DNA from: Elusimicrobia bacterium HGW-Elusimicrobia-3
GTDB lineage: Bacteria > Elusimicrobiota > Elusimicrobia > Elusimicrobiales > UBA9959
Direction of reading: 5' to 3'
NCBI GenBank assembly: GCA_002840355.1
Contig: PHAL01000002.1
Location: forward strand, 108,857 to 172,856
Length of the DNA: 64,000 nucleotides
Shown: in pieces, positions 12,116 through 62,890 of the stretch
Numbering within the stretch: position 1 is the stretch's first letter
Layout of the letters: the number at the start of each line of letters is the position of its first letter
The notes under the pieces: generated by a model
Told to the model about the DNA's origin: nothing
The model's input: only the letters and a program-made list of their open reading frames with translations
The model's database searches: none
Position numbers and translations under genes: made by a program

Positions 12116-12149
12116 CATATGGAGTCATAATATCGGACAGGCGGTAGGA

Positions 12150-27800: not shown

Positions 27801-28558
27801 GTTCAAATGGTGTCTATGCCTTAGCGGTGAATGGTGATGAGATTTATGCCGGCGGCTTCTCTGGGGGCACCACAAGTTGGGAGGCTGTAACCTGGCAGGG
27901 CGCCCATAGCGGCGGTAATGAAGGCTTTGTTGTGGAGATACAGGACGGTGCCGCGCCTGTTATAAACTGGGGGCAATGGCTGGGCGGTGCGGGGTATGAT
28001 TATGTTCAGGCGCTTGCGGTGAACGGCGACGAGATTTATGCTGCTGGCTATTCCCCCGATGCTACCAGCTGGGAGACTATAGCCTGGCAGGGCGGGGAGC
28101 CTAACGGAAATCCTGATGGTTTTGTAGTGGAGATACAGGACGGCGCTACGCCTGTAATAAATTGGGGCCAATGGCTGGGTGGGACTGGTGTCGACTTTGT
28201 TTATGCCCTGGCGGTGAACGGCGATAAGATCTATGCCGGTGGCCACTCTGGGGACGCTACCAGTTGGGAGGCGATAACCTGGCAGGGCACCCATAGCGGC
28301 GGAAATGAAGGCTTTGTCGTGGAGATCCAAGACGGCGCCTCGCCTGTAATAAATTGGGGGCAATGGTTGGGTGGTACGGGGCATGAGTATTTTTATGCTT
28401 TGGCAGTGAATGGCGATGAAATCTATGCCGGCGGCTATTCTCCCAACAGTTCCGGTTGGGAGAATATAACCTGGCAGGGGACGCATAACGGCATATACGA
28501 AGCCTTCATTGTAAAGATCCTCCCGCCCGCCGACCCCACCTTCCCCTCCCACTGGTAG
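24890..28558 (+). CDS. secreted protein with 14 SBBP-like beta-propeller repeats
   Basis: Signal peptide MVLLNALLGLSFILPASA. From aa 314 there are 14 tandem ~64-aa units: INWGQWLGGTGNDYVYALAVNGDEIYAGGYS..ATSWETITWQGAHSG..EGFVVEIQDGATPV. Confidence 0.85.
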   Translation: MVLLNALLGLSFILPASAADGGAPAYTILYNSEAGGGVPAGLPAIMRLIRSKEKELGVSTSSSSRLELGDGAAAFTTAVEAAEDAGGGAVEDPGAPPHQLRPGPPREGGLAVRTLFDLNSDTVKKRSQVKGGGDNNTMVMTLDNKGRPYSRLALSSPEGDLQVYHRDTDYIIYTQAADGRGGISLKEWLYALKPGPGGRTAYSWSFESGSKNQAIELRREPAGGIGVYSRLVAVGIDAADRKRQASVMETVRKAFRSEVKIGDERLLARLQPVVYWTVAGERKTADFNVTGAGKLDLSLAEPPESYPLIIDPTLNWGQWLGANEAGEAHIKALAVDTATGEIYIGGHIGAPGIVSESITWQGTHSGLNEGFVVEIQDGATPVINWGQWLGGVQDDYVYALAVNGDEIYAGGHSIASSSGWETITWQGAFSGSNEGFVVEIQDGATPVINWGQWLGGTGNDAVRALAVNGDEIYVGGDSWSATSWEAITWQGTHSGGNEGFVVEIQDGATPTINWGQWLGGTGNDTVYALAVNVDEIYAGGNSYDATSWETITWQGAHSGNSEGFVVEIQDGATPVINWGQWLGGTGIDYVYALAVNGDEIYAGGYSGAATSWETITWQGAYSGSYESFVVEIQDGAAPAINWGQWLGGTGAEYLTALAVNGDEIYASGYTYVTTGWETITWQGAHSGSSEGFVVEIQDGATPTINWGQWLGGTGEDCVYALAVNGDQIYAPGETNLSDSWESITWQGAYNGGYEGFVVEIQDGATPAINWGQWLGGGIASAEIKALAVNGDEIYAGGYSGSSVAFESITWQGAHSGSSEGFVVEIQDGVTPVISWGQWLGGTGNDYVRALAVNGDEIYAGGDSQGATGWETITWQGAHSGDYEGFVVEIQDGVTPAINWGQWLGGTSTDRVYALAVNGDEIYAGGSSYSATGWETVTWQGAHSGNYEGFVVEIQDGVTPAINWGQWLGGTSSNGVYALAVNGDEIYAGGFSGGTTSWEAVTWQGAHSGGNEGFVVEIQDGAAPVINWGQWLGGAGYDYVQALAVNGDEIYAAGYSPDATSWETIAWQGGEPNGNPDGFVVEIQDGATPVINWGQWLGGTGVDFVYALAVNGDKIYAGGHSGDATSWEAITWQGTHSGGNEGFVVEIQDGASPVINWGQWLGGTGHEYFYALAVNGDEIYAGGYSPNSSGWENITWQGTHNGIYEAFIVKILPPADPTFPSHW
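25829..28555 (+). repeat. coding tandem repeat, 14 units of ~192 bp (64-69 aa)
   Basis: The nucleotide strings aactgggg(c/g)caatggctggg and ggctttgt(a/g/t)gtggagatacaggacgg recur every ~192 nt from 25829 to the end of the CDS. Confidence 0.9.
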
Positions 28559-32206: not shown

Positions 32207-32575
32207 ATGAAGATACTGGTAATAGAGGATAACGAGGCCTTCTCCCTGATGCTCTGCGACGCGCTGCGCGAGGCTGGCTACGAAGTTGGCTCCGCGTCAA
32301 GCGGGAAGCAAGGCGTCAAAAGCGCGCTTTCCTTTCTGCCGGACCTGATATTGCTGGATTATCAACTCGGCGACATGACAGGCTACGACGCGGCGCTGGG
32401 AATACGCTGCATGCGCGCCACGGCGGCGACGCCTTTTATACTGCTCTCTTCGCTGGCCGACGATCAACTGCTGGTGAGCGCCTTCAAAAAGTTGCCCAAT
32501 TGCCGGGCTGCCCTGGTAAAGAACCAACCCCTTGGCGTGATACTGGCCGCCGTAAAGGCCGTACTCGCCGTGTAG
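32207..32575 (+). CDS. single-domain response regulator (paralog of the 11070 gene)
   Basis: MKILVIEDNEAF, DLILLDYQLGDMTG, FILLSSL, KKLPNCRAALVKNQPL. It is collinear with the 11070 product. Confidence 0.85.
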   Translation: MKILVIEDNEAFSLMLCDALREAGYEVGSASSGKQGVKSALSFLPDLILLDYQLGDMTGYDAALGIRCMRATAATPFILLSSLADDQLLVSAFKKLPNCRAALVKNQPLGVILAAVKAVLAV

Positions 32576-32634
32576 GGCGAGGGCTAAAGGGGGGCGGGTA
32601 TTATCGCAACTTCTATAATCCATCAGGAGATGAG

Positions 32635-33789
32635 ATGGTCTTAAAAATAATCTTCATTATCGCTTTGGCGCTGTTTTCGGTCGCCACGGCCTTTTGCGCC
32701 GGGCCCAAGGAACTGACGTTCATGGTGTACAAGAACGCCAAGAACGACCTGTGGGAATTCGCCGGGAAAGACATGGCCGAACTGCGCGCGGCCGGCTCGG
32801 ACGCCGCCGTGAACGTGGTGACCGAAGTGGGACGGATGAAAGACGGGGGGGACTGGAGCGGAGTCCGGCGCTATTACGTGGAGCGGTCCCCGGCGGACGC
32901 TCCGGATACCGCCGGGCTGGTCTGGGAGGCGCCTTTCGCCGATATGGGCGACTGGCGGCACCTGGCGGATTTTATAAAGTGGGCGAAAGCCAATTATCCC
33001 GCCCGGCGTTATGCGCTGGTGGTCTGGAACCACGGCAATGGCTGGAAGAAAGGCCTGCCTGGCGGGCCTTCCGGCCGCGCCATCTCTTTCGACGACGAGA
33101 CCGGGAATTATATAACCACGCCGCAGCTGGCGGCCGCGCTGAAAGAGGCCGGGCCGGTGGACGTGCTGGCCTTCGACGCCTGCCTTATGCAGACCGTAGA
33201 GGTGGCCTATGAGGTGAAGGACTACGCGGCTGTGGTGGTCGGTTCGGAAGAGACCGAGCCCGGCGAGGGCTACCCTTACGATATGGTACTGAACGCGCTT
33301 AAAGCCGCTCCCTCCGTGTCGCCGGAAGAGATAGGCGCGGTCATAGTGCGCGAGTATCAGAAGGCCAATGCGGCGGCCTATATGAACACCACACAGTCGG
33401 CGGTGCGTACCGCCGCCCTGCCCACCCTGCTGGAACTGCTCGGTGAATGGACGGCAGAGGCCGCCGGGGCGCAGCCTATGGCGCTTAAATACGCCGCCTC
33501 GCGCGCGCAGGCCTTTTACGACTTCGATCAGAAGGACCTTTACGACTATATGCGGGTGGTGGCCGGGCTGGACGTGCCCGAAGATCTCCGCGCCCGGTCA
33601 CGCCGCGTTATGAGCCATCTTGAAGAGCAAGTAATCGTGGCCAACGGCGTTACCGGCTACCAGCATCGCAACGCGCGCGGCCTGGCTGTTTACCTGCCGC
33701 AGCGCTATGCCTACAGCGCCGATTACGGCGCGCTGGCCTGGAGCCGCGAGGGCCATTGGGACGAGTTCATCTCCGGCGCGCCGCGCTAG
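32635..33789 (+). CDS. clostripain-like cysteine peptidase (family C11), secreted
   Basis: AGGAGA lies before the ATG at 32635. Signal peptide MVLKIIFIIALALFSVATAFCA. ALVVWNHGNGW (His) and VLAFDACLMQTVEVAYE (Cys) match the C11 catalytic dyad context. The track start at 32500 is rejected. Confidence 0.75.
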   Translation: MVLKIIFIIALALFSVATAFCAGPKELTFMVYKNAKNDLWEFAGKDMAELRAAGSDAAVNVVTEVGRMKDGGDWSGVRRYYVERSPADAPDTAGLVWEAPFADMGDWRHLADFIKWAKANYPARRYALVVWNHGNGWKKGLPGGPSGRAISFDDETGNYITTPQLAAALKEAGPVDVLAFDACLMQTVEVAYEVKDYAAVVVGSEETEPGEGYPYDMVLNALKAAPSVSPEEIGAVIVREYQKANAAAYMNTTQSAVRTAALPTLLELLGEWTAEAAGAQPMALKYAASRAQAFYDFDQKDLYDYMRVVAGLDVPEDLRARSRRVMSHLEEQVIVANGVTGYQHRNARGLAVYLPQRYAYSADYGALAWSREGHWDEFISGAPR

Positions 33790-33920: not shown

Positions 33921-36707
33921 ATGACACAAAGAAGCAGAACGATCCTTTCAATTCTAGGGGTCACCAAACTCGACGACAAGTTTTCGATACTTATCGTCAC
34001 GTTCCTCGCCATCGTCCTGACCGGCCTTGCCGTGACCACCCAGACCGCGATACGCCTGAAGCGGCTCTCCCCGTCGGTGGATGCGGCCGGCAGGCAGCGA
34101 ATGCTGACCCAGCGGATGATGGGCCGGGCCTTTCTGCTGGCCTCCGGAGACCAGGCCGCGCTGTCCGATGGGCTTAAGAGCGCCGCTGAATTTGAGGAAG
34201 GCCTGGCCGCGCTGCGCGGCGGCGGCCGGGCGGCCGGCGTGGCGCTTGCTCCCGCACCGGGCAGAATAAGCCCCTACCTGGACCAACTAGAAGCCCGCTG
34301 GCGCGCCTTTAAGCCTGGCTATGAGTGGCTGATGGAGAATGCGGACAAAAGAGCTTCCCGGGAATTCAAGCTGCGGCTGGCCAGCCTTGAGGCGCAATCG
34401 GAACTGCTGCTTGCCGCCGCCGAGGAGGTTGCCCGCTACCTGCGCCAGCATGCCTCTAACCGCGTCCTCAATGTGGCTATCGGGCTCCTCCTGGGGCTGG
34501 CCGCCGCCGCCCTTCTCACTTTTGCGCTGGCTTTCCGTACGCTGCGGCGGGAACTCATTAAGCCGCTGGAAGAATTGATCTCGTCAGCGGAAAGGATATC
34601 GACGGGGGATTTCCACGCGGTTCCGGCGGAGATACGCGACGGCGAGCTGGGTACCCTGGCCCTGGCGCTGGAAAAGATATCCGATTCGGCGGTCAAGCGC
34701 ATTAACGCGGATAAGATCACCAATAGGCTGCTGAACCTGGCGGTGGAAACCGAGGACCTGCCCGGCCTTTTGAAAACAGCGCTGGAGACGGTGCTTTCGG
34801 CCGACTGGCTGTGCGCGGAGCCCAAAGGGGCGATATTTATCGCGGATAACGCGGCAAAAAAACTGACGCTGGCCGCGCAGTCCGGCCTGCCCGCGGCGCA
34901 AGGGGCGGCCTGCGCGGAGGTCGGTTTCGGACGCTGTCTCTGCGGCAGGGCCGCGGAGGCGGGGGAAGTTATTTACGCCGGCGGAGTCGAAGCCCGCCAT
35001 GAGAATGTGTACGAGGGGATCAAAGAGCACGGCCATTACTGCGTGCCCATGCTCTCCGGGAGCCGTCTTGTGGGCGTGCTGGCCCTCTACCTGGCGCCGG
35101 GTTACCTCTGCGACCTGGACGAGATAGCGCAGCTGAAAGGCATAGCGGCCCTGCTGGCGCAGATAATAGAGAAGAAACGGGGTCAGGCCGAGAACCGTAA
35201 AATGTCGGAGGCGCTGCGCCAGGCCGCGGAGGCCGTGTTTATAACAGGGACGGACGGGAAGATAACCTACGCCAACGAAGCATTCGAAAGGATGACCGGC
35301 TTTTCAGCGGCGGAGGCGCTCGGGAGGACGCCGAACCTGCTTAAGAGCGGCGAACATACCCCGGAGTATTATAGTTCAATGTGGGTCAGCATGCAGGAAG
35401 GCCTGCCCTGGACGGGCCGCATAGTAAATAAAAGGAAAGACGGCGGGCTCTTTACCGTGCAGGCCAACATTTTTCCGCTTAAAGATTCGTCGGGCAAGAC
35501 CACCGCCTATGTCACACTGCAGGAGGACGTTTCCGAACTGGTGGATACCGAAGAGCAGCTGCGCCAGTCCCAGAAGATGGAGGCGGTAGGCAGGCTGGCA
35601 GGCGGCGTGGCGCATGACTTCAATAATATCCTGATGGCCATAGACAGTTATGCGGGCTTTATCCGCCGGCGCCTTCCCGCGGCCAGCCAGGAAGCAGCCG
35701 ACGCCGGCGAGATAATCGTAGCCGTGCAGAAGGCTGCCGCGCTGACCCGGCAGCTGCTGGCTTTCAGCAGGAAGCAAAAGGCGCTTTTTCAGGCCCTTGA
35801 CCTGCGGCAGGCTGTGCTGGCCGGAGAAGAAATGCTCAAACGGCTGCTGGGCGAAACGGTAACGCTGAAGATCTCCGTCGCCGATGACGCCGGGAGGATA
35901 ATGGCCGATCCCGGCCAGATAGACCAGATACTGATGAACCTGCTGTTGAACGCCAAAGACGCCATGCCTGAGGGCGGGATCATAGAGATCCGCGTGGCCG
36001 GACACAAATCCATATTGCCGGTCCCCACCCCAGTGGGGACCATGCCGGCGGGGGAATATACCGTGCTTTCGGTTTACGATACCGGGTCAGGAATGGACAA
36101 AGAAACTCTTGGGCGGATATTCGACCCGTTCTTCACCACCAAGCCGAAGGGGAAAGGGACCGGACTGGGTTTATCCATAGTCTACGGCTCGGTGAAGCAT
36201 CACGGCGCATATATCACGGTAGCCAGCCGGCCGGGAAAAGGCTCCACCTTCACGCTCTATTTTCCGGTGTTCTCCGAACCGGCGGGGAAAGGCGAGCTGT
36301 CGCCGGAGCGGGCTCTCCGGACGGTCCCGGCGCAGGCGTCCGTGCTGCTGGCAGAAGACGATCCGATGGTGTTGGCCTCGGTGGAGCGGATGCTGCGGGA
36401 ACTGGGGGCGGAGGTGCGGGCTTTCCCGGAACCGGAAAAGCTGCTGGAATTCGCCGCCGGCTACGCCGGCGGCATAGACATCCTCCTGACCGATATCGTG
36501 ATGCCCGGAATGGACGGGTTCGCGCTGGCGGAGCGCCTGACGGCCCAAAAACCCGGGGTCAGGGTGATCTACATGTCCGGCTATACCGACCCGGACATTT
36601 TCAAGGGGCGTCTGGGGCGTCCCGGCATAGTGTTCCTGCAGAAGCCGTTCAACGAGGCACTGCTGGCGGAGACGCTTTCAAGGGTGATGGCCGCGGGAGC
36701 GGCATGA
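33921..36707 (+). CDS. hybrid sensor histidine kinase (PilJ/NarX-type N-terminal sensor, HAMP, GAF, PAS, HisKA, HATPase, receiver)
   Basis: [16 protein letters not shown] (PilJ-N/NIT-like), the HAMP region, a PAS segment ([22 protein letters not shown]), the H-box [12 protein letters not shown]-boxes, and a C-terminal receiver (VLLAEDDP...[13 protein letters not shown]...FLQKPF). Confidence 0.9.
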
Positions 36708-36756: not shown

Positions 36757-38943
<2,187 letters not shown>

Positions 38944-39485: not shown

Positions 39486-40019
39486 ATGCGGGCCGCTATG
39501 AGCGGCTCTTTAAAAACCGATAGCCTGGCCGCGCCGCGGCCGGTGTCGTTTTTTTTGCGGCCCGCCCGGCCCGGGCGCGTTGTACTGGAATTCGTCCTGC
39601 CGGGGGCGCGGCGCCATGAAGGAGTTCCGCTTAATATCAAAAGTATGCCTCCTTGGCTTGACGCGCTCCTGGCGCGGGCCGAGGGCGCTATTCCGGGGGA
39701 CGGTTACAAAGTCTTCGGAGATCTTAGTATCTGCGTGGATTCCCGGCTGGTGAAGTTTGGCGGTAAAGTGATACCGGACCTGACGACCAGGGAAATAGAT
39801 CTGCTTGCCGCCCTGGCCGCCGCCGCCCCGGCCGTAATATCGAGGGAAAATATCGTTTCCAAAGTATGGAAAACCGTTGCGGTACCCAACCTTGTTCACA
39901 CCCATGTCTGTAACCTGCGCCGGAAACTGCCCGCGCGGCTGGCCGCGCGTATACAGGCCGTTCCTGGGAAAGGGTTCCGCTATTTCCATTCCCGTGCGGA
40001 AGTCCTGCCCTGGATATAA
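39486..40019 (+). CDS. OmpR-type winged-helix protein lacking a functional receiver (start uncertain; the ATG at 39645 is an alternative)
   Basis: The C-terminus (LTTREIDLLAALAAAAPAVISRENIVSKVWKTVAVPNLVHTHVCNLRRKLPARLAARIQAVPGKGFRYF) is paralogous to the 5875 product. Upstream there is only a vestigial alpha5-like PWLDALLAR. An in-frame TAA at 39459-39461 blocks any receiver N-terminal half. Confidence 0.7.
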   Translation: MRAAMSGSLKTDSLAAPRPVSFFLRPARPGRVVLEFVLPGARRHEGVPLNIKSMPPWLDALLARAEGAIPGDGYKVFGDLSICVDSRLVKFGGKVIPDLTTREIDLLAALAAAAPAVISRENIVSKVWKTVAVPNLVHTHVCNLRRKLPARLAARIQAVPGKGFRYFHSRAEVLPWI

Positions 40020-40129: not shown

Positions 40130-41848
40130 ATGAACAGAGGAGCCGGAAAAATCTTTGGCGCAGTCATGTCCTTTACGGGCATGCTGTGCCTTGCCGTTAC
40201 CGGCTATTGCGGTGACGCCGGCTCGGCCGGCGCGTCTTTCTTGAAATTTTCACCCAGCCCCAGGGGTACCGGTATGGGTGAGTCCCACGTTTCGATATCA
40301 GAAGACGCCTATTCCTCGTGGTGGAACCCGGCCGGCCTGGGCAGCGTGGAGGGGCCGGAGCTGGCCGCTACCTACAACGATTCCATGGAGGACGTCGCCA
40401 ACCAGTATCTTTCGGTGGCGTATCCTCTCCGTTATGGCTCCACGCTGGGGCTGAGCGTTACCCGCCTGAGCGTCTCTCCCTTTCAGGGTTACGACGCGCA
40501 GGGGGTAAAGAGCGGCAGGGTGGAATCCTCGGACATGTCGGTGGGGGCCGCTTACGGGCGGGCCATCATGAAGGACGAGATAGAACGTCCGGTGCTCAAC
40601 GTGGGGGCGGTCTTTAAGGTAATCAGCGAAGAACTGGCCGGGGTCTCCGCTTATACCGCGGCGCTGGATCTTGGCGCGGTCTATTATATTAGGCCGGACA
40701 ATTACTGGATGAGCAAGGCGCCGGCGCAAGAATTCCGCGTAGCCGCCACCTTGCGCAACCTGGGCCCCGGCTTAAAGTTCGACAAGGAGTCCTCGCCGCT
40801 GCCCTTGTCCGCCACACTGGGCGGGTCATGGCATTCGCATCCCGGCGGCAGCGCCAGCCTTATAATCAGCCTGGACCAGACCATCTCCAGGGACGAGAAC
40901 TATTATGCCGCGCTGGGCGCCGAGTACGTGGCCTTTCAACTGCTCTCGCTGCGGGCGGGCTATCGCACCGGGCAGGACATCGGTTCCGGCCTGCGCTTCG
41001 GCGTGGGTTTCCGCCTTTCCATCGCCGATATAGATTATTCCATGTCGCCGTTCGGGGAGCTGGGGGCTATGCACAAGCTGGGCGTCTCTATGCGGTTGGG
41101 AGCCACGGCGGCCAAATTGCCGCTGGCCGGCAAGACCCAGCGCGTAAAAGGAGCCCGGCTGATGGCTCCCAAGGACAAGATAGAAAAACTGGATCTTTTC
41201 GCCAATGATTTCCTGGAGCTGGCCCGCAAAGATCTGTCGGCCCGCCGCTATGTTTCTGCCCAGGCCAATATTCGCAAAGCCTTTAACCTGGATCCCAGGC
41301 TGAAGGAAGGCGACTGGGGCCGCCGTGAAAAGCGCCTTGGCGAAGTTATAGCGGGGCTTAAGCTGGCCGATATCCCGGCCAGGGAGAGAACGCTGGCCGC
41401 CAAGGGCGAGCAGTCCGGCATAGCGGCCGAGGCTATAGCCGCCTATATAGAGAGCAAGGACCTGAAGGCCTTCCTGCTCGCGCATGCCGCGCTGGGCACC
41501 GACCTGCGGGGCGACGCCGTCTTTGAGGAACTGCTCTACATATTGAGCGACCTGGTAAAGATACATGTGCGCCGCGACGAGATACTCCCGAGGCAGGCGC
41601 TGATCAAGGAAAAGCTCAGGAAGGCGGCCAGGGGTTTTTACATACGCCAGTTCGACACGGCCGCCAAGGAATGCGAGGAGGTTGCCGTAATAGACGAGGC
41701 GAATCCCGTGGCCTGGACCAGGCTGGGCTCGGCCTATTTCATGATGGGGGATAAGGATAAAGCCAAGGCCGCCTACCGCAAGGCCCTGGAAATAAACCCG
41801 TCCGACCCGGTTACCAGTGAATTCATGCGGGCCCAGGGCTGGGAGTAG
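40130..41848 (+). CDS. outer-membrane beta-barrel (PorV/UPF0164-like) fused to C-terminal TPR region
   Basis: Signal peptide. AGASFLKFSPSPRGTGMGESHVSISEDAYSSWWNPAGLG resembles the N-terminal signature of PorV/PorQ-type barrels (recalled from memory). Alternating beta-strand pattern. C-terminal TPR (AWTRLGSAYFMMGDKDKAKAAYRKALEINPSDP). Confidence 0.6.
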   Translation: MNRGAGKIFGAVMSFTGMLCLAVTGYCGDAGSAGASFLKFSPSPRGTGMGESHVSISEDAYSSWWNPAGLGSVEGPELAATYNDSMEDVANQYLSVAYPLRYGSTLGLSVTRLSVSPFQGYDAQGVKSGRVESSDMSVGAAYGRAIMKDEIERPVLNVGAVFKVISEELAGVSAYTAALDLGAVYYIRPDNYWMSKAPAQEFRVAATLRNLGPGLKFDKESSPLPLSATLGGSWHSHPGGSASLIISLDQTISRDENYYAALGAEYVAFQLLSLRAGYRTGQDIGSGLRFGVGFRLSIADIDYSMSPFGELGAMHKLGVSMRLGATAAKLPLAGKTQRVKGARLMAPKDKIEKLDLFANDFLELARKDLSARRYVSAQANIRKAFNLDPRLKEGDWGRREKRLGEVIAGLKLADIPARERTLAAKGEQSGIAAEAIAAYIESKDLKAFLLAHAALGTDLRGDAVFEELLYILSDLVKIHVRRDEILPRQALIKEKLRKAARGFYIRQFDTAAKECEEVAVIDEANPVAWTRLGSAYFMMGDKDKAKAAYRKALEINPSDPVTSEFMRAQGWE

Positions 41849-41852
41849 CGAC

Positions 41853-42794
41853 ATGGACATACTGCTGATCATGATCGTCCCTGTATCCCTGCTGCTGCTG
41901 GGCGCCGGCTTCCTGGTGGTAGCCCAGGTCTCCGGTTTCATGCAGTCGACTTTCTTCAATAGCCGGCAGAATTTTTCGAACATGATAATACAGCAGTACA
42001 TGGAACGCATTACCCTGGCCCAGGGGCAGCTCTACCAGCGCAAGCAGGAGCTGGAGGCTATGTCGGGCAAGCTGGCGTTGTCCAACCAGGAACTGGGCCG
42101 CCTTAACGACATGAAGTCCAAGTTCCTGTCCATGGTGGTGCACGACGTACGCACGCCGCTGGCCTCCATCAGGGGGTTCAGCGAACTGCTGATGAAGAAG
42201 AAGGTGGGGGAGAAAGAGACGGCCTACCTGAAGAATATCGTCAGTTCCACCGACCAGCTGGGCCGCCTGATAGCGGACCTGACCGACCTGGCCATGATAG
42301 AGGCCGGAAAACTGAAGATGGAAAAGGCGCTGTTCGAGTTCCCGGATATGGCGCGGGACATCCTGCCCGGCCTGTCCATCAACGCGCAGAAGAAAGGCGT
42401 GGACCTGGTAGTTCATGATTTCCCCGACGGGGTACTAGTGAACGGCGACAAGTTCCGCCTGTCGCAGGTATTCATGAACCTGGTCAACAACGCTATAAAG
42501 TTCACCCCTGCGGGGAAAAAGGTGGAGGTGTCCTTCAGGCGCGAAGGCAAGTACGTGGACACGCTGGTCAAAGATTCAGGGATAGGAATACACCCGAGCG
42601 AGACCAGGAAGATCTTCGAGAAGTTCTACCAGGCCAAGTACCAGAAGGACGCGGCGCTGCGCAAGCAGGGCTGGGGTCTGGGGCTTTCGATAGCGCAGGA
42701 GGTGGTGCGGGCGCATAAGGGGGATATCGGCGCCCAGAGCCCCGGGCTGGGCAAGGGCTCCACCTTCTGGTTCAAGATCCCGGTAGGCACATAA
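41853..42794 (+). CDS. minimal membrane histidine kinase (one TM, no sensor domain)
   Basis: MDILLIMIVPVSLLLLGAGFLVVAQV, a coiled-coil linker, the H-box KSKFLSMVVHDVRTPLASI, an N-box (NLVNNAIKFT) and G-boxes (DSGIGI, GWGLGLSIA). Confidence 0.85.
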   Translation: MDILLIMIVPVSLLLLGAGFLVVAQVSGFMQSTFFNSRQNFSNMIIQQYMERITLAQGQLYQRKQELEAMSGKLALSNQELGRLNDMKSKFLSMVVHDVRTPLASIRGFSELLMKKKVGEKETAYLKNIVSSTDQLGRLIADLTDLAMIEAGKLKMEKALFEFPDMARDILPGLSINAQKKGVDLVVHDFPDGVLVNGDKFRLSQVFMNLVNNAIKFTPAGKKVEVSFRREGKYVDTLVKDSGIGIHPSETRKIFEKFYQAKYQKDAALRKQGWGLGLSIAQEVVRAHKGDIGAQSPGLGKGSTFWFKIPVGT

Positions 42795-42809
42795 GGATTG
42801 GAGGCTACT

Positions 42810-43547
42810 ATGGACATTACAACGATAATAGGTTTTCTGGGCGCCGTCGGCCTGATCTCCGCCGGAGTGGCCGGAGAGCAGATCTCGGCCTCGCTGATAA
42901 ACATGCACGGCGTGGTGGTGGTGCTGGGCGGCACGCTGGTGGCCACGCTGATAAACACTCCGCTGAAATTCATCCGGGGCGCAATATCCGAGCTCGGCCT
43001 GATCTTCAGGGAGAACGACGAGGTGGCGCCCGACAGGATCATCCCGGTGATAGTCGCGCTCGCCGAACAGTCCCGCATGCGCGGGCTGTCCGCGCTCAAG
43101 GAGGCCGATCCCGCGGTGGCCAAGGGTTTTCTGAGCAGGGCCGCCACCGCCGCGCTGGAATATAACGATACCAAGTTCGTTAGGGAAGTCCTCGAGCAGG
43201 AGATAAACCAGGGCGTGGACGACATGAACGAAGTGGCCAACGTCTACCGCACGATGGGCGTGATGGCCCCGATGTTCGGCCTGCTGGGCACGCTGATAGG
43301 CATCATCGGCGTGCTCAAGGACCTGGCCAACCCCGAGAGCGTGGGCCCTGCCATGGCCGTGGCCATCACCTCGGCCTTCTACGGGATCTTCTTCGCCAAT
43401 ATGATCTGCGTTCCTATAGCCGGCAAAATGCGCGCCAAGGTGTGGCTGGACGTGCGCATGAAATCCATGATACTGGAAGGGGTGCTGGAGATCATGAAGG
43501 GCAGCATGCCGCTGGTGATCGAGCGCAGGCTGCAGTCGTATCTTTAG
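42810..43547 (+). CDS. motA: MotA/PomA-type stator proton-channel protein
   Basis: GGAGG lies 6 nt before the ATG at 42810. Four TM helices. MGVMAPMFGLLGTLIGIIGVL and AVAITSAFYGIFFANMICVPIAGKM carry the two conserved Pro residues of the MotA/ExbB/TolQ channel family. The ~245-aa length is PomA-like. Confidence 0.8.
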   Translation: MDITTIIGFLGAVGLISAGVAGEQISASLINMHGVVVVLGGTLVATLINTPLKFIRGAISELGLIFRENDEVAPDRIIPVIVALAEQSRMRGLSALKEADPAVAKGFLSRAATAALEYNDTKFVREVLEQEINQGVDDMNEVANVYRTMGVMAPMFGLLGTLIGIIGVLKDLANPESVGPAMAVAITSAFYGIFFANMICVPIAGKMRAKVWLDVRMKSMILEGVLEIMKGSMPLVIERRLQSYL

Positions 43548-43569
43548 TCCTGGAGCGGAGGTTGTGGTT

Positions 43570-45102
43570 ATGGAAACTAAAATGATGAAAAAAATCAGCC
43601 GCGGGGTACTCTGCTCCGCGCTGGCCACCCTTGCCCTGCTCCCGGTACTGGCCGTGCGCTGCCGGGCCCAGTCGCTGCCCTTCGAGGACAAGGCCAAATA
43701 CGAGAAGGCCCTGGAGCAGAAGGTGGACGATGTGCTGGTCCGCCTGCTGGGGCCGAACCAGGCCAAGGTGGTGGTAGAGGCAACTATGGACTTCAGCCGC
43801 ACCGAGAAACTGGACGTCACTTCGGCGGCGCCGTCGGACAAGGAGAACCCGTTCAAATGGCAGGGGGCCGGCGGCGAGGCGCAATCGGGCGACTACCTGA
43901 TGCCCGGCTTCCTTTCCTTCTCCGCGGGCTCCAACGAGAATAAATCCTATAACCGGCAGATGCTGTACCCGTCGGCTTTCATCAAGAAGATGACGGTCAG
44001 CATTATCCTCAACCGCGACCTGCCCGATCTGGACGCCGAGAACATCCGGCGGGTGGTCTCCGAAATGATGCAGCTCGACGTTAAACGGGGGGACCAGCTC
44101 TCCGTCATAAAGGCTCCGTTCGCCCCGCTGTGGCGCACCATCTGGTACACCCCCGAGGCCATCAGCATGGTGCTCAAGTACGTGATGCTGGCGCTGATGG
44201 GGATAATAGGCATGATAGTGGTGGCCGTCGGCTTTCTCAAACTTGCCGGCGCCATGAGCACCATGGCGAAGGTGCAGCAGAGCCACCAGATAACCATGGA
44301 CCTGGGCAAGGGCGCCGGGCCGGCCGGCCTGGACGGGCCGCCGCCCGCCCTGGGCGGCCCGGCCGAAAGGCCGCAGGCCGCGGCCGGCGAGCCGGGGATG
44401 GGCGGGGGGGACGACAGAGTGGTATTCAGCGTGCGGCCCGACCAGGTGCCGTTCCTGGTGAACATGATGGCCAGCGAGGACCCGGCCAACGTGGCCCTGG
44501 TGGCCGGCCACCTGCCGGCGGAGGTGCGCACGGACTTCCTGCGCAAGCTGCCTCCGGCCTTCTCCTCCGACGTGCTGATCCATATGGCCAAGATCCGTTT
44601 CGTCGAGCCGGAGATCATAGCCACGCTCAAGGACGAGCTGGAGCGCCGGCTGAGCGGGGCGGTGGGCGGCCTGGACGGGGCGCTGGAAGCCATAGAGAGC
44701 ATGACCCTGAAGGCCAGGATAGAGATGCTGGAGGAACTGGGCAGGAAGCATCCGGAACTGGCCGCCGAAGTGCGCCGCCGCGTGCTGCTGCCCGACGATA
44801 TCGGCCGGTTCAGCGAGCGGGAACTGTCGCTGCTGGCCGGCGCGCTGAAGGCCGAGGAATGGGCTACGGCTCTTTTCAGACTGTCGGACTCCGTAAAGGA
44901 GAAACTGCGCGCCCAGATGGCCGACAAGACCTGGGCCATGATAGAGCAGAGCATGAGCTACGGCAGCCCCTCGCACGAAAAGGCGGAGGAAGCGCTCGAA
45001 CGCGTGATGGCCGCCGCGGCCGCCTTCATAAAAGAGGGAAAGATCGTTAACCCGGCCGATTCTCAGCAACCGCTGCTCGAGAGCGGCCAGGCCGAGGCCT
45101 AG
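43570..45102 (+). CDS. FliF-like (single ring-building region + TM) / FliG-like (middle + C-terminal domains) fusion protein
   Basis: Signal/TM segment. LEQKVDDVLVRLLGPNQAKVVVEATMDFSRTEKLDV and IKKMTVSIILNRD...VSEMMQLDVKRGDQLSVIKAPFAP, followed by a TM helix, parallel the FliF C-terminal periplasmic part. A Gly/Pro linker follows. EDPANVALVAGHLPAEVR... and RRRVLLPDDIGRFSERELSLLAGALKAEEWATALFRLSDSVKEKLRAQM...EEALERVMAAAAAFIKEGKI parallel FliG-M and FliG-C. Start ambiguous (43564 GTG, 43570, 43582). Confidence 0.65.
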   Translation: METKMMKKISRGVLCSALATLALLPVLAVRCRAQSLPFEDKAKYEKALEQKVDDVLVRLLGPNQAKVVVEATMDFSRTEKLDVTSAAPSDKENPFKWQGAGGEAQSGDYLMPGFLSFSAGSNENKSYNRQMLYPSAFIKKMTVSIILNRDLPDLDAENIRRVVSEMMQLDVKRGDQLSVIKAPFAPLWRTIWYTPEAISMVLKYVMLALMGIIGMIVVAVGFLKLAGAMSTMAKVQQSHQITMDLGKGAGPAGLDGPPPALGGPAERPQAAAGEPGMGGGDDRVVFSVRPDQVPFLVNMMASEDPANVALVAGHLPAEVRTDFLRKLPPAFSSDVLIHMAKIRFVEPEIIATLKDELERRLSGAVGGLDGALEAIESMTLKARIEMLEELGRKHPELAAEVRRRVLLPDDIGRFSERELSLLAGALKAEEWATALFRLSDSVKEKLRAQMADKTWAMIEQSMSYGSPSHEKAEEALERVMAAAAAFIKEGKIVNPADSQQPLLESGQAEA

Positions 45103-45110
45103 GAGGGGAT

Positions 45111-46616
45111 ATGGACAACCAGAAATATAAGAAGGACTCGGTGTTCTCTTCGGTATTCCCGCAGCAGGAACCTGCCAGCCCGCCCGCGCCGGCCGCGGCG
45201 CCGGTCCATAAGCCCGAGGTTTCCGAAGGGCAGGTCTCGGCCTTGAACAAGAAGATAGAAATGCTGGAGCGCAATATAGTCGGCGAACTGCAGCGGACGC
45301 TGGCGGAACGCGCGTCCGCGCCGCCTGCTCCGCCCCCGCCTCCGTCGCAGGCCATCCCGGCCGTCATTTCCAAAATAACCGAGATGGAAAACCGCTTCAA
45401 GGAATTCCAGGAGAAATTCCTGATCGGGGCGGCGCAGATGAAGAATATAGAGGAGTCCAAGATCAGCGCGCGCCGGGAGATAGAGGAACTGCTCAAGGTG
45501 GTGCGCGAGCAGCAGAAGTATTCGGAACTCGACAGGCAGATGCATGACCAGCTGGAAAAAGCCTGGGCCCGCGTGGAGCAGATGGAGGGCCGTCTTGTTG
45601 AAGCTTACGCCGCAGCCGCCCAAAAAACCGCACCCGCCGCTCCGCCAGTCGCTCCTCCCGCCCCGCAGGTCTCCGCGGACGAAATAGCCGCGGCCGTTCT
45701 GAAGGCCGTAGACGGGGCTATCGGTGAAAGAATAAAGGCGGTCGACGCGAAGCTCGACGCCAGGCTGCGGCTCTTGGAGGACATGGTACGGAAGTCCCAG
45801 GCGGGCGCCGGGGAGTCCCTGGAGGCCTGCCGCCAGTTGGGGGCCGGCTTTGCCTCACACTCGTCGCGGGTGGACTCGGCCCTGGCCTCCATTTCTGAGG
45901 AAGTCGGCCGTTCGGCTATCAGCGCCTTCTCCGGTAAGGAACGCCTGGAGGATATGGTCACGGATATGAAGACGGAGTTGAAGGGTTATATAAAAGAGCA
46001 GGCGGACCGGTCAGTTTCCGCCTTTGTCGGTCATGCGGACGCTTCCGCGCTTGACGCCCGTGAGCGGCTCGACGCGCTGGCGCGGATGATGGTGACCCAT
46101 GTGGATTCCCTGACCGCTGCCCAGGCGGCCGTCTCTGCGCGGTTGGGGGATATGGCCGCGACCGTTGATAACCACGCGGCGGCGCAGCAGCGGACCGTTG
46201 TCTCCAGCGCCGAAGATGCGGAGCGTTCGCTGCGCGCCGGACTGGACTCGCTGGCGGCCCGGGTGAGCGCGGAGAACGACGGGCAGTTGCTGAAACTCAG
46301 GGAAGTCTTTGATCTTTCCGCCTCCGGTCAGGCCGCGCTTTCCGGTGCAGCCGCCGATATTGCCGGGATAGAGTCCCGGCTTGAAGCTTTGCGGACCGTT
46401 CTGGGCCGCGTCCTCGCCGACCTGCGCGCCGTGAACCTGGAGGGGATCTTAGGCGTCTCGGGGGCCGTTATCCGCAAGACGGTGGAAGGTCTTCCCGGGC
46501 TTTGCGAAGAATTGCGGCGTAACGAGACGCTGATGAGGGAAAAACGCGCCGTGATAGAGGCCGGCGCGTTGCGGCTGCGGGCCGGAGGCGGAGGCGACTC
46601 AAATGAGCGGCCCTGA
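45111..46616 (+). CDS. Pro/Ala-rich coiled-coil protein (501 aa), no TM
   Basis: AGGAGG lies before the ATG. Two PAPP-type stretches separate long heptad-like helices (ALNKKIEMLERNIVGELQRTL..., ENRFKEFQEKFLIGAAQMKNIEESKISARREIEELLKVVREQQ...). Confidence 0.65.
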   Translation: MDNQKYKKDSVFSSVFPQQEPASPPAPAAAPVHKPEVSEGQVSALNKKIEMLERNIVGELQRTLAERASAPPAPPPPPSQAIPAVISKITEMENRFKEFQEKFLIGAAQMKNIEESKISARREIEELLKVVREQQKYSELDRQMHDQLEKAWARVEQMEGRLVEAYAAAAQKTAPAAPPVAPPAPQVSADEIAAAVLKAVDGAIGERIKAVDAKLDARLRLLEDMVRKSQAGAGESLEACRQLGAGFASHSSRVDSALASISEEVGRSAISAFSGKERLEDMVTDMKTELKGYIKEQADRSVSAFVGHADASALDARERLDALARMMVTHVDSLTAAQAAVSARLGDMAATVDNHAAAQQRTVVSSAEDAERSLRAGLDSLAARVSAENDGQLLKLREVFDLSASGQAALSGAAADIAGIESRLEALRTVLGRVLADLRAVNLEGILGVSGAVIRKTVEGLPGLCEELRRNETLMREKRAVIEAGALRLRAGGGGDSNERP

Positions 46617-47445
46617 TTCACTGTTCTCCTGCATACAGCCGGCTGAAGCGCCACGGGGCGATGCCTGCGCATCTAAACCTGCGCCGCCGCCACCGCCTCC
46701 GGCGCCGACAGCCGCCCAGGCGAGGAATAGCGATCTGGAAGCAAGGCTGAATAAAAGCGAGGAAAGACGGCTGGCGGCCGAAACCAGGCTGGCGGAACTG
46801 GAAAAAGGCTTTGCGGCCTTTAAAAATGAATTGGCGCGGACCAGGGAGTCCCTTGCCGCGGGTCCCGGCCCGGCGGCTATCCAGGAGTTGAAACAGGAAT
46901 TATCGGTTCTCTCGCGCAGACTCCTGGCCGCGGAGGCGGCGGTCTCCCGCGACTCTTTGCGCGATGGGCAGGCCAGCGCCCTGGAGGCGGCGGACAGGCG
47001 GCTGAAAGAAGCCGAAGCGCGCATAGGCGAGGAAATAGAGCGCCGCTTTGCCGGTTTGGATACGGCGATTTTTGAAATCGCGCGCAAAGCGCTGACGGCT
47101 AAAGAGGCCGCGGCGGGGAATACGCGCAGGCTGGAAAGGCTGGAGGAGCGGACCGCGCGTTTGACATACATAGAGAAGCGGCTGAACAGCAGCGAGAATA
47201 AGTTCGAAAGGATCTGCGAGTGCGAAGCGCTGGCGGAATCGCTAAAGGTAAGCGTGGAGGAAGTGGAACGGACGCTGGCCGAAATGCTGCACAAGGAGGC
47301 CTCCCTCGCGGCGGAGAACCGCAAGACGGCCTCCGAACTGCAATCCCTGTCCGCGCAGGTGGGACAGATCAGCGCCCTTTTTAATCACTTCCGGTCCGAA
47401 CTTTCCTTTCTGATTCCCGGGAGAAAGGACGTGGCCGGGGGGTAA
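46603..47445 (+). CDS. Pro-rich N-terminus + coiled-coil protein (280 aa)
   Basis: It overlaps the upstream gene by 14 nt. KPAPPPPPPAPT is followed by continuous coiled coil (DLEARLNKSEERRLAAETRLAELEKGFAAFKNELARTRESL...). Confidence 0.65.
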   Translation: MSGPDSLFSCIQPAEAPRGDACASKPAPPPPPPAPTAAQARNSDLEARLNKSEERRLAAETRLAELEKGFAAFKNELARTRESLAAGPGPAAIQELKQELSVLSRRLLAAEAAVSRDSLRDGQASALEAADRRLKEAEARIGEEIERRFAGLDTAIFEIARKALTAKEAAAGNTRRLERLEERTARLTYIEKRLNSSENKFERICECEALAESLKVSVEEVERTLAEMLHKEASLAAENRKTASELQSLSAQVGQISALFNHFRSELSFLIPGRKDVAGG

Positions 47446-47456
47446 GGTATTACTTT

Positions 47457-48137
47457 ATGGCGATATACAAACAAAGGCGCGACGAGGTGGAGAACCAGCT
47501 CAACAAGGGGGCGCTGTGGGCGGTTACCTACGGCGACCTGATGAGCTACCTGATGATCTTCTTCCTGGTCCTGTTCTCGTTCTCTGTCTCTAAAAACGAC
47601 AAGACCAAGAACAGGAAATACGAGGAGTCGCTAGGGAACATCCAGAAGGCTTTCGGCGGTACGGCAGACTCCCCGCGGTTGGAGCGGGCGATAGCCAAGG
47701 AGAACGAGGAGGCGACGGCCAAGAAACTGCAGGAGTCCGTGGCGTCGAGCCTGGTGCAGGTGGAATCCAGCGAAAAGAGGCTCAAACTGGTACTCACCGA
47801 GGGGGTGCTGTTCGACTCCGGCCGGGCCGACCTGAGAGAAAGGGCCCGGGAGGTACTGAAACCCATAGTGGACGAGTTGAAGAAACTGCCCAATGAAGTG
47901 GTAGTGGAGGGCCATACAGACAATGTGCCCATAAAGAGCGGCCGGTATTCCACCAACTGGGAACTTTCTATGGCCAGGGCCTACAGCGTGATAAGTTACA
48001 TGGAGAGCCTGGGGATGGACAAGCGCAAGCTCGCGGGCATCGGCTATGGCGAGAATCGCCCTGTCGCGGCCAATATCGACTACGAGGGCCGCGCCAGGAA
48101 CCGCCGTATAGAAATATCCCTGATGAAAACTGATTGA
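47457..48137 (+). CDS. motB: MotB-type stator protein with OmpA-like peptidoglycan-binding domain
   Basis: ALWAVTYGDLMSYLMIFFLVLFSF (TM helix with the conserved Asp). C-terminal VVVEGHTDNVPI...SNWELSMARAYSV...GIGYGENRPVA...NRRIEISL. Confidence 0.85.
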   Translation: MAIYKQRRDEVENQLNKGALWAVTYGDLMSYLMIFFLVLFSFSVSKNDKTKNRKYEESLGNIQKAFGGTADSPRLERAIAKENEEATAKKLQESVASSLVQVESSEKRLKLVLTEGVLFDSGRADLRERAREVLKPIVDELKKLPNEVVVEGHTDNVPIKSGRYSTNWELSMARAYSVISYMESLGMDKRKLAGIGYGENRPVAANIDYEGRARNRRIEISLMKTD

Positions 48138-48320: not shown

Positions 48321-48361
48321 AAAAGAAAAGAGCCCGGCGCAGGCCGGGCCCTTTTCTTTTT
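48321..48361. terminator. bidirectional rho-independent terminator
   Basis: AAAAGAAAAGA-GCCCGGC-GCAG-GCCGGGC-CCTTTTCTTTTT lies between the convergent motB operon and ssnA. T-tracts are present on both strands. Confidence 0.75.
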
Positions 48362-52335: not shown

Positions 52336-54906
<2,571 letters not shown>

Positions 54907-62044: not shown

Positions 62045-62890
62045 ATGAAACTATCCGAATTCATCCGTCCCGCCAGCCTGGCCGAAGCGCGCAAGTCCCT
62101 GCGCCAGCTCGGTCCCAAGGGCATGCCGCTGGCCGGCGGCACCGCGCTGCATTTCATGCCCGGAAAAACTCCGGTCACCGCGGTGGACATAACCCGCCTG
62201 GGCCTCTCCTACATCAAGCAGAAAGGCGATTTCTTCGTCATCGGCGCCGCCACGCCGCTGGCCGACATACAGCGTTACCGCGGCCCCCGCTGGGCCATGC
62301 ACGAGATCTGCCGCCGCATCTCCACCCACCAGGTCCGCAATGTCTCAACCATCGGCGGCAACATCGCCCGCGTCTTCCCCTGGGCCGACCTGCCCGTGGT
62401 GCTGCTCGCCATGGACGCCCGGCTGGTGATCTACTCCGGCAAAGAGAAAGACATGCCGGCCGACGAGTATTTCTCCTCCCAGCCCGCGCGGCTGTTCCGC
62501 GGGGGGGACCTGCTTACCGCCGTCAAAATACCGGTGCTCAAGGCCCATCACGGCTTCGGTTCGGTGAAAGCCACCCGCAACGCCACCGCTTTCTCGCTGG
62601 TGACCATTGCCGCCCTACTGGAACTCAAGGGCGGCATCATCAAGTCGGCGCGCGTGGCCGCCGGCAGCGGCATCCCCTTCCCGCAGCGGCTCAAACCCGT
62701 AGAGGCGGCCCTCGCGGGCAAAGAGGCCTCGACTGCCGTCTTCAGGGAAGCCGCGGCCGCCGCCGGAGCCGCCGCCCGGTGGGTGGGCGGCGAGGGCATG
62801 AGCGCGGACTATATACGCCAGCTCGCCGAAGTCTCCATCCTGGACGCCCTGGAAAGGGCCGCTGAATTCGCTCGCGGGAGGGCCGCATAA
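62045..62890 (+). CDS. molybdo-hydroxylase FAD-binding (medium) subunit, XdhB/CoxM-like
   Basis: 281 aa. LAGGTALHF, NVSTIGGNIA and the CO-dehydrogenase flavoprotein C-terminal-like end. It is followed by the 2Fe-2S and Mo subunits. Confidence 0.8.
   Translation: MKLSEFIRPASLAEARKSLRQLGPKGMPLAGGTALHFMPGKTPVTAVDITRLGLSYIKQKGDFFVIGAATPLADIQRYRGPRWAMHEICRRISTHQVRNVSTIGGNIARVFPWADLPVVLLAMDARLVIYSGKEKDMPADEYFSSQPARLFRGGDLLTAVKIPVLKAHHGFGSVKATRNATAFSLVTIAALLELKGGIIKSARVAAGSGIPFPQRLKPVEAALAGKEASTAVFREAAAAAGAAARWVGGEGMSADYIRQLAEVSILDALERAAEFARGRAA

Follow-up and report, generated by a model that had tools for sequence, protein, structure and literature searches.

To our knowledge, the flagellar rotor-stator pair, FliG together with MotA and MotB, has so far been known only inside flagella. 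Engineered or mutant fusions of FliF to FliG in Salmonella and Vibrio still assemble rings when the two proteins are covalently linked (PMC11481574; PDB 8z4d). In the Chlamydiaceae, a natural FliF-FliG fusion exists in which only the middle domain of FliG (FliG-M) is present. This protein was proposed to contact the injectisome, and the flagellar genes listed for chlamydiae are FliF, FliL and FlhA, without MotAB (PMC4768692). Most free-living Elusimicrobiota lack flagellar structural genes yet possess motAB, flbD and fliG homologues of unclear role, and a few genomes of this phylum do carry full flagellar gene sets (bioRxiv 10.1101/2022.07.08.499144). In this study, we analyzed a stretch of 64,000 nucleotides from Elusimicrobia bacterium HGW-Elusimicrobia-3 (contig PHAL01000002.1, positions 108,857 to 172,856; the whole stretch is called the window hereafter). 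We focused on a gene at 43570-45102 (+ strand) that encodes a natural fusion of FliF-derived and FliG-derived domains and lies between genes for a flagellar-type stator. The fusion protein is probably the rotor subunit of a non-flagellar FliF/FliG ring that is coupled to MotAB. The survey of Elusimicrobiota cited above mentions the motAB and fliG homologues in passing; the fusion, its operon and the link to PorV-type proteins and C-terminal sorting domains are not noted there. We found no published account of this combination of fusion, MotAB and PorV; what we did find were the engineered fusions, the Chlamydia case and a remark by Uzun et al.

The longest frame of the fusion gene extends from a GTG codon at 43564 to 45102 (+ strand) and encodes 512 amino acids; the residue numbers used here for the fusion protein refer to this frame. 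The ATG at 43570, which gives 510 amino acids, is the better gene model because a GGAGG box is located 8 nucleotides upstream of it. An earlier note on this DNA, made by reading the letters only, had described a product of about 510 amino acids from 43570, and the GGAGG box upholds this start. The encoded protein consists of an N-terminal signal or transmembrane segment, the RBM3 module of FliF with a shortened collar, a transmembrane helix, a juxtamembrane helix, a Gly/Pro linker, and the middle and C-terminal domains of FliG. Three Pfam families were detected above their cut-offs: YscJ_FliF_C at residues 134-186 (38.9 bits; cut-off 23.8), FliG_M at residues 298-366 (44.6 bits; cut-off 25) and FliG_C at residues 391-495 (45.3 bits; cut-off 23.3). 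An alignment of 30 fusion-family members was used both as the profile for the PDB search and as the input for AlphaFold2. The profile matched the FliG M+C fragment of Thermotoga maritima (1lkv; E 5e-34, residues 297-497), the FliF RBM3 chains 9yh6 and 8z5s (E 3e-6 to 1e-4) and the chain of an engineered FliF-FliG fusion (8z4d). The 9yh6 match spans residues 38-183 of the query, and residues 40-76 correspond to residues 270-306 of the Vibrio FliF chain in 8z5s. The match to Salmonella FliF (6scn) was weak (E 0.026, query residues 135-185 to chain residues 381-440).

The AlphaFold2 model of the fusion protein has a mean predicted local distance difference test score (pLDDT) of 72. In Foldseek searches with this model, the FliG-like half matched the M+C fragment 1lkv (E 4e-12), the FliG_C structure 1qc7 (template modelling score, TM-score, 0.94), the FliG_M structure 4qrm (TM-score 0.88) and the FliG_C domain within the MotAB-FliG complex 8ucs (TM-score 0.86). 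The FliF-like half matched FliF S-ring subunits with TM-scores of 0.53-0.58 and E values of about 1e-6 to 1e-5 (8z5v: TM-score 0.58, E 2e-6); SpoIIIAG was matched too, less strongly. The earlier note had read the product as the last ring-building module of FliF followed by sequences collinear with the middle and C-terminal domains of FliG, and had named profile searches and a superposition of an AlphaFold model as ways to check this. Both lines of evidence agree with that reading: the FliF and FliG domains score above the Pfam cut-offs, the PDB profile finds both, and the model reproduces the FliG M/C and FliF S-ring folds. An MgtE-type identity was also considered and rejected, since the MgtE_N match (19.7 bits; cut-off 25.9) is below threshold and lies beneath the FliG_M match.

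The N-terminal hydrophobic segment (residues 11-35; 43594-43668) is either a signal-anchor, like the first transmembrane helix of FliF, or a cleavable signal peptide. In relatives whose rotor protein is fused to a histidine kinase, the equivalent segment comes after the cytoplasmic kinase domain, and therefore it must be a true transmembrane helix in these proteins. The periplasmic RBM3 module (43675-44121) is split by an insert, as it is in FliF, into RBM3a (residues 38-77) and RBM3b (residues 134-186). The collar-like insert between them (residues 78-133) is about 57 amino acids long, compared with about 110 for the beta-collar of Salmonella, and is modelled with a pLDDT below 50. In the 30-member alignment, its residues F97, Y111, P114, G115 and F116 are invariant and W99 is nearly so. 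The second transmembrane helix (residues 197-225) and the cytoplasmic juxtamembrane helix AMSTMAKVQQSHQITMDLGK occupy 44152-44310. This juxtamembrane helix is nearly invariant throughout the family and belongs to the most conserved stretches of the protein. Hydropathy placed the two hydrophobic segments at residues 11-29 and 197-234, where the earlier reading had expected a signal or transmembrane segment and a second membrane helix. The Gly/Pro-rich linker that it had also described is encoded at 44311-44424, in the place of the FliF C-terminus and FliG-N. Residues 250-283 are disordered in the model (pLDDT below 50), and their length and sequence vary across the family. YscJ_FliF, which represents RBM1 and RBM2, was matched neither in Pfam nor by the PDB profile nor in NCBIfam; the FliF matches start at the onset of RBM3, around FliF residues 241-270. 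The protein falls outside FliF proper, as it lacks RBM1/2 and scores only 22.9 bits against the FliF equivalog TIGR00206 (cut-off 129.75).

In the other half of the protein, the FliG middle domain (ARM-M) and helix MC are encoded at 44425-44703, up to the Gly-Gly linker, and the FliG C-terminal domain, including the equivalent of the torque helix (residues 452-465), at 44704-45054. FliG_N was not matched in Pfam, and the transmembrane helix and the disordered linker precede FliG_M. This confirms that the FliG N-domain is gone and that a covalent link stands where FliF-C and FliG-N would make contact. The FliG motifs were compared between the fusion subfamilies and five canonical FliGs. The Gly-Gly linker is retained (G368 and G369 are invariant in 30 members), and helix MC is shortened by a deletion of seven residues ahead of it relative to canonical FliG. 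The FliM-binding motif EHPQ(R) is replaced by EDPAN in the fusion protein of the window. The switching hinge MFXF reads MFVF in all of the canonical FliGs compared; it is replaced by VLLP here and by xFxF in a distant group of fusions that carry a C-terminal tetratricopeptide repeat (TPR) extension. Within the torque helix, a positive charge remains as K455 at the position of R281 in Escherichia coli, D288 and D289 are replaced by Q462 and S463, and the equivalent of R297 is lost, in line with the earlier view that the torque-helix charges are only partly kept. E461, together with an acidic residue at position 454, is conserved; E461 is invariant in the 30 sampled members but is Ala in a kinase-fused relative (locus L057). 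Co-variation of charges between stator and rotor was tried as evidence of contact and set aside, as the patterns differ by subfamily and follow no clean compensatory rule.

Loss of the H and Q of EHPQ, the seven-residue deletion and loss of the R297 equivalent were observed in every fusion subfamily examined and in none of the five canonical FliGs. These three shared changes suggest that the fusions are a single family, separate from bona fide FliG. By its sequence, the protein falls outside FliG proper: FliG_N, EHPQ and MFXF are missing, and the score against the FliG equivalog TIGR00207 is low (59.5 bits; cut-off 226.7). It is best described as a member of a FliG-derived paralogue family and not as FliG itself. 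In a rough neighbor-joining tree, the canonical FliGs grouped together and the TPR-type fusions stood nearest to them; the tree included seven canonical FliGs picked by similarity and has no support values, and it cannot decide between derivation from flagellar genes and a sister status.

The operon of the fusion gene encodes a complete stator of the flagellar type, which is co-conserved with the fusion. The motA gene (42798-43547, + strand; likely start ATG 42810) is immediately upstream of the fusion gene, and motB (47457-48137, + strand) is located three genes downstream. MotA has four transmembrane helices and aligns from end to end with MotA of Bacillus subtilis (6ysl; E 2e-34), PomA (8bri) and MotA of Clostridium sporogenes (8ucs). 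It matched the PomA/MotA models of NCBIfam at about E 1e-46, as against 1e-5 for TolQ. R93 (the position of E. coli R90), P158 and P206 are invariant, and K101 stands in place of E. coli E98 in at least 90% of the orthologues. MotB has the plug, a transmembrane helix with the essential channel residue D27 and an OmpA-like peptidoglycan-binding domain. It was matched by MotB_plug and OmpA in Pfam, by the MotD, MotB and MotS models of NCBIfam, and by PDB 6ysf (E 4e-31) with the channel Asp aligned; D27 is invariant. Because MotA and MotB miss all of the NCBIfam equivalog cut-offs (for example, PomA with 158 bits against 341), they represent a distinct stator subfamily.

These genes belong to an operon of seven genes at 40130-48137, all on the + strand and separated by gaps of at most 23 nucleotides, in which the fusion is the fourth gene. 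The first gene (40130-41848, + strand) encodes an outer-membrane beta-barrel of the PorV/PorQ family (residues 33-321) with C-terminal TPR repeats (Pfam TPR at residues 507-560). Its product scored 147 bits against the NCBIfam model PorV_fam (NF033709; cut-off 90) and fell below the cut-offs of the PorV and PorQ equivalogs; its TPR domain should face the periplasm. The second gene (41853-42794, + strand) encodes a histidine kinase with HisKA and HATPase_c domains (Pfam), one conserved N-terminal transmembrane helix and no sensor domain; its frame is open from 41817, but conservation places the start at ATG 41853. Between the fusion gene and motB lie the genes for proteins X (45111-46616, + strand) and Y (46603-47445, + strand), both coiled-coil proteins without transmembrane segments. 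Neither matched Pfam, NCBIfam, PDB or PHROG. Protein X is predicted to be cytoplasmic and all-helical (single-sequence AlphaFold2 model, pLDDT 56), and only its N-terminal approximately 170 amino acids are conserved between subfamilies. In protein Y, the C-terminal approximately 150 amino acids are conserved, and some relatives have this part fused to an X-like protein. A gene of the X type was always found between the fusion gene and motB in the loci examined. A GC-rich hairpin resembling a terminator, with T-runs on both strands (48331-48349), probably marks the end of the operon; the site counts of a promoter and terminator scan in this region were not above chance, and the hairpin is suggestive by its position only. 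All seven genes are under purifying selection. The ratio of nonsynonymous to synonymous substitution rates (dN/dS) against two relatives was 0.02-0.19 over the operon, and the kinase gene is the most constrained of the seven (0.018-0.05).

The fusion family is large. When 1.84 billion cluster representatives were searched exhaustively with the profile, 137 matched below 1e-30, and the order RBM3, transmembrane helix, FliG_M, FliG_C was found in more than 100 of the 150 best representatives at 50% identity. The nearest relatives of the fusion protein are all from metagenome-assembled genomes (MAGs) of Elusimicrobiota, the best being 92-93% identical (Elusimicrobiales bacterium). About 50 Elusimicrobiota loci have the PorV/Q-TPR, kinase, MotA, fusion, X(Y) and MotB genes in this order on one strand, and in about 40 loci of this phylum the PorV-TPR gene is immediately upstream of the kinase gene, which is adjacent throughout the core family. 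The genome of Elusimicrobia GWA2_61_42 has two paralogous clusters. On a contig of UBA9634 (L031, approximately 5700-12500), one cluster apparently contains two fusion genes, in the order PorV-TPR, kinase, fusion, 295-amino-acid open reading frame (ORF), MotA, fusion, X, MotB.

Two further groups differ from the core family in their layout. About eight representatives have the kinase joined to the rotor protein at its N-terminus, giving the order transmembrane helix, HisKA, HATPase, transmembrane helix, RBM3, transmembrane helix, FliG_M, FliG_C. These proteins of about 820-850 amino acids (P0125, P0132, P0134, P0136, P0139, P0146 and P0270; L057:8001-10469) belong to a sister subfamily within Elusimicrobiota, and we are not aware of any other kinase that forms part of a putative rotor subunit. 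The distant TPR-type group combines its C-terminal extension with a near-canonical torque helix. Its clusters are mostly labelled '[bacterium]', in addition to Elusimicrobiota, one Saganbacteria and one probably mis-binned 'Thermoprotei'. One member of the fusion family is from a Saganbacteria MAG. In the TPR-type locus L055, the L13 protein is closest to those of unclassified bacteria, and its best named match is from Aminicenantes (84% on a partial sequence). In TPR-type loci an flbD gene precedes motA and motB (L055:14819-15052; L056:15885-16112); there is none in the operon of the window. The arrangement flbD-motA-motB is that of flagellar operons in Firmicutes and spirochaetes. The position of flbD beside motAB hints at a flagellar origin of the stator genes.

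The outer-membrane barrel is a constant companion of the fusion. A gene for a barrel of the PorV/UPF0164 type with TPR is located immediately upstream of the fusion or kinase gene in every subfamily, and in the sister subfamilies it is itself preceded by genes for very large proteins. In the kinase-fused locus L057, a protein of 6140 amino acids (L057:1-6332) precedes the barrel, which is followed by the kinase-fusion, MotA and MotB. In the TPR-type locus L055, a protein of 6952 amino acids (L055:1-7919) stands upstream of the barrel, and the fusion, a 925-amino-acid protein, FlbD, MotA and MotB stand downstream. In L056, also of the TPR type, the barrel is preceded by proteins of 1946 (L056:1215-7055) and 4266 amino acids and followed by the fusion, a 1302-amino-acid protein, FlbD, MotA and MotB. 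In the Saganbacteria locus L054, the upstream protein is cut by the contig end (L054:1-707), and the barrel is followed by the fusion, MotA and a LysM protein. The C-termini of upstream proteins in these loci carry the type A sorting domain TIGR04183 (33.5 bits in L057, 31.3 in L055, 25.6 in L056 and 26.9 in L054; cut-off 23). These calls rest on the NCBIfam model, and Pfam Por_Secre_tail and FlgD_ig were mostly below threshold on the candidates. The type A sorting domain is the domain bound by PorV in type IX secretion. The sorting-domain proteins also have fn3, Laminin_G_3, FG-GAP or Big_5 domains and are reminiscent of the gliding adhesin SprB. In paralogous 'type B' clusters of Elusimicrobiota, giant ORFs are located directly upstream of the PorV-TPR gene. 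Just downstream of another TPR-type cluster is a Roadblock/LC7 (MglB-like) gene (L053:15798-16145), and the cluster is flanked by two PorV genes and by S8 protease and Big_5 proteins that bear C-terminal sorting domains. In gliding Myxococcus, polarity is under the control of proteins of the MglB type.

The window itself encodes two proteins that might be handled by such a barrel. A protein of 368 amino acids (6667-7773, + strand) carries a C-terminal type A sorting domain (TIGR04183 at residues 298-366, 24.7 bits; cut-off 23) that is 34% identical to that of the giant protein in L056. It might be a client of PorV-type proteins; its link to the operon is indirect. Its N-terminal region weakly matches the pilus protein PamT of the type found in the candidate phyla radiation (E 3e-4), and a response regulator gene (5818-6564) adjoins it. 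A repetitive protein of 1668 amino acids (15710-20716, + strand), with internal repeats, is 41% identical over 774 amino acids (E 4e-130) to the giant protein of locus L049, one of those encoded beside the paralogous type B clusters. It is a possible cargo or partner, loosely linked as it lies about 19 kb from the operon. This gene belongs to a large repetitive block with essentially no family matches (15710-20716, 22364-23587, 23611-24834 and 24890-28558), whose proteins have 1668, 407, 407 and 1222 amino acids; both 407-amino-acid proteins are related to the largest one. A clostripain-family protease (Peptidase_C11; 32500-33789) is encoded about 6 kb upstream of the operon, and three C11 paralogues are encoded just downstream of the orthologous GWA2_61_42 cluster (L005:17857-21497). 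These proteases may be secreted clients.

Directly upstream of the operon are two large hybrid histidine kinases (33921-36707 and 36757-38943), of which one contains PilJ-N, HAMP, GAF and PAS domains. Next comes a 177-amino-acid protein (39486-40019) that has an OmpR-type winged-helix domain only, without a receiver, and is conserved upstream in L005, L012 and L020. Downstream, a Ser/Thr protein kinase of 856 amino acids with a TPR region (52336-54906, - strand) shows no apparent relation to the operon.

Taken together, these findings point to a rotor and stator that work apart from a flagellum. The fusion protein would span the inner membrane with two helices, or with one if the signal is cleaved off, and RBM3 with the short collar may oligomerize into a periplasmic ring like the S-ring; FliF itself assembles into rings of about 33-34 subunits. 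On the cytoplasmic side, a flexible tether would connect each subunit to an M and a C domain of FliG. Because each subunit carries both domains, the ratio of FliF to FliG would be fixed at 1:1 without the contact between FliF-C and FliG-N. MotA and MotB of the operon would form 5:2 stator units anchored to peptidoglycan. Ion flow through the channel at MotB Asp27 could then make the MotA pentamer rotate against the helix of FliG-C and drive the ring, with a pattern of interface charges that is rewired relative to flagella. Because export gate, rod, hook, filament, FliM and FliN are absent from the ORFs and loci scanned and EHPQ and MFXF are gone, the machine would not be a flagellum and probably not a reversible switch. 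In the periplasm, the output would most likely pass to the outer membrane, with the collar or its partners and the barrel's TPR domain as the candidate route. Very large surface proteins could in this way be secreted, anchored or moved, in analogy to the type IX secretion and gliding powered by GldLM/PorLM, and the membrane histidine kinase may be an integral regulatory or sensing partner of the motor.

Our confidence differs between the parts of this scheme. That a non-flagellar, MotAB-coupled ring exists together with some role directed to the outer membrane is what we somewhat favor. That the output of the motor is the handling of surface proteins or gliding is a tentative proposal. We are similarly cautious about the scheme in its complete form, a so far unrecognized trans-envelope machine in which a ring of RBM3/FliG-MC subunits, turned by MotAB and accompanied by a histidine kinase, energizes the export, anchoring or movement of giant adhesins via a PorV/PorQ-type protein; made from rotor and stator parts of the flagellar type, it would correspond in function to the motor of type IX secretion and gliding.

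Several observations weigh against the scheme. The E. coli charge pairs between MotA and FliG are not retained and depend on the subfamily, and the contact between stator and rotor is therefore assumed from homology. A kinase that is fused to a supposedly rotating ring, as in the sister subfamily, is awkward for a simple rotor model. The TIGR04183 sorting domain was not detected in the type-B giant protein of locus L003 or in the window protein at 15710-20716, and the cluster in the window is preceded by two-component genes and not by a giant protein. Furthermore, the lack of a flagellum in this organism rests on the literature and the related loci, as its own genome was seen over 64 kb.

The kinase provides the strongest case for a different function. 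The ring and MotAB might mainly serve signalling, with the kinase reading stator engagement, ion-motive force or load and the mechanical output being secondary or absent. The kinase would fit such a role in several respects: no other gene of the operon is as constrained, it has a conserved transmembrane helix and no sensor domain, it is adjacent in the core family and covalently joined to the rotor in the sister subfamily, and many two-component genes are located just upstream in the window and in relatives. It is unlikely that this is the main function, since the TPR-type and Saganbacteria clusters have the fusion, stator genes and PorV-TPR but no kinase. Because the kinase is missing there, it is not part of the conserved core. 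The conserved outer-membrane barrel and the giant sorting-domain proteins would also be left unexplained. The further step, in which the kinase controls gene expression through neighboring response regulators, is likewise doubtful.

The fusion might instead replace the MS-ring and C-ring of an atypical true flagellum whose other genes are located elsewhere. All recognizable domains are indeed flagellar, the distant clusters have the flbD-motA-motB order of flagellar operons, and a few Elusimicrobiota have full flagellar gene sets. We nevertheless regard a flagellum as improbable, as the protein lacks RBM1 and RBM2, the modules in which the export gate sits, the collar, which holds the rod in flagella, has only half the usual length, and the motifs for FliM binding and switching are lost. 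Among the window ORFs scanned, which did not comprise 60598-61887, 62045-62890 and some others, genes for flagellar export, rod, hook, filament or switch were not found. The flanks annotated in ten related loci contained no flagellar structural, export or switch family, FlbD being the only flagellum-associated one. One genome with two clusters, and the lack of flagellar structural genes in most free-living Elusimicrobiota, argue in the same direction. The sole published natural FliF-FliG fusion, that of Chlamydia (PMC4768692), suggests another possibility: a paralogue that serves a type III secretion apparatus by docking sorting platforms of the SctQ type, without a stator. Here FliG-C and dedicated MotAB genes are present, neither of which is reported for the Chlamydia protein, and type III secretion genes were found neither among the window ORFs scanned nor in the related loci, which makes this reading very improbable. 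The slimmest chance is left to a decaying flagellar remnant or an anti-phage MotAB system of the Zorya type. Decay is at odds with the strong purifying selection on the seven genes, with an operon kept in about 50 loci and with a family of more than 100 clusters at 50% identity. MotB does match ZorB models, through generic MotB/OmpA similarity only, but PADLOC gave no ZorA match for MotA, there are no ZorC-like or ZorD-like genes, and the PADLOC result rejects Zorya or another defence system. We therefore retain the non-flagellar ring driven by MotAB as the preferred reading.

If this reading is right, a flagellar rotor-stator pair has here been stripped down to one fused rotor protein and its stator, detached from export gate, rod, hook, filament and switch and linked instead to a PorV-type protein, giant sorting-domain proteins and a kinase. 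The rotor-stator system is large, conserved and apparently independent of the flagellum, with a partner in the outer membrane, and the assembly as a whole has a substantial chance of being an envelope machine of a new kind. If the ring rotates, it would represent the minimal FliF/FliG rotor found in nature, of use in structural studies and in building synthetic motors. Flagellar torque generation would then have been redeployed for another envelope function, possibly secretion or gliding resembling the type IX system, in phyla with no reported PorLM motor. A rotating ring would also provide a concrete case in which to test how the core of the motor became united with the export apparatus during evolution. 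If the family is sister to all canonical FliF/FliG and not nested among them, it might be a living model of a pre-flagellar rotor-stator module. The system would furthermore account for the unexplained motAB, fliG and flbD homologues in non-flagellated, possibly magnetotactic, Elusimicrobiota.

Comparison with the flagellar rotor-stator core reveals the same RBM3/S-ring fold, the same FliG ARM-M and C folds and the same Gly-Gly linker. The stators also agree in the MotA Arg at the R90 position and two Pro, and in the plug, channel Asp and peptidoglycan-binding domain of MotB. In contrast to the flagellum, FliF and FliG are one polypeptide here, without RBM1/RBM2, FliG-N or the FliF C-terminal peptide and with a collar of half the length. 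EHPQ, MFXF and the R297 equivalent are lost, helix MC is seven residues shorter, and MotA has Lys at the E98 position. No export apparatus, rod, hook, filament or FliM/FliN was seen in the loci, and the partners are PorV/PorQ-TPR, a histidine kinase and coiled-coil proteins.

The system shares with type IX secretion and the gliding motor of Bacteroidota the genes for an ion-driven inner-membrane motor of the 5:2 type beside a barrel of the PorV/PorQ family. The giants of 6000-7000 amino acids with TIGR04183 type A domains, found alongside in the sister subfamilies, are a further likeness (compare SprB). Type IX secretion is likewise regulated by a two-component system, PorXY. The two differ in that MotAB acts here on a FliF/FliG ring and not through a PorL/GldL motor with a PorM/GldM shaft. 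Genes for PorL/M, PorK/N, Sov/SprA, PorU and PorZ were not seen in the window or in the related loci. The giant proteins beside the closest relatives have no detectable sorting domain. The functional parallel is inferred.

With the fusion of the Chlamydiaceae (CT719-type; Bergeron 2016, PMC4768692), our protein has in common a truncated FliF (signal, fewer ring-building modules, transmembrane helix) joined to a FliG-like domain in non-flagellated bacteria. The Chlamydia protein has about 330 amino acids, with an RBM2-like and an RBM-like domain and FliG-M only (PMC4768692). The fusion in the window has 510 amino acids with RBM3, FliG-M and FliG-C and is encoded between motA and motB, and it is set apart by the architecture described for the two proteins. 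The earlier note had called a minimal covalently fused rotor unusual. The flagellar-type motA and motB in the same operon strengthen the case for a rotor, but a natural fusion is not unprecedented given the chlamydial one. Engineered fusions show that such a link is compatible with ring assembly, and Salmonella deletion-fusions of FliF and FliG reportedly support rotation as well. These constructs join full-length FliF to full-length or nearly full-length FliG in a complete flagellum, whereas the fusion in the window is natural, truncated on both sides and located outside a flagellum.

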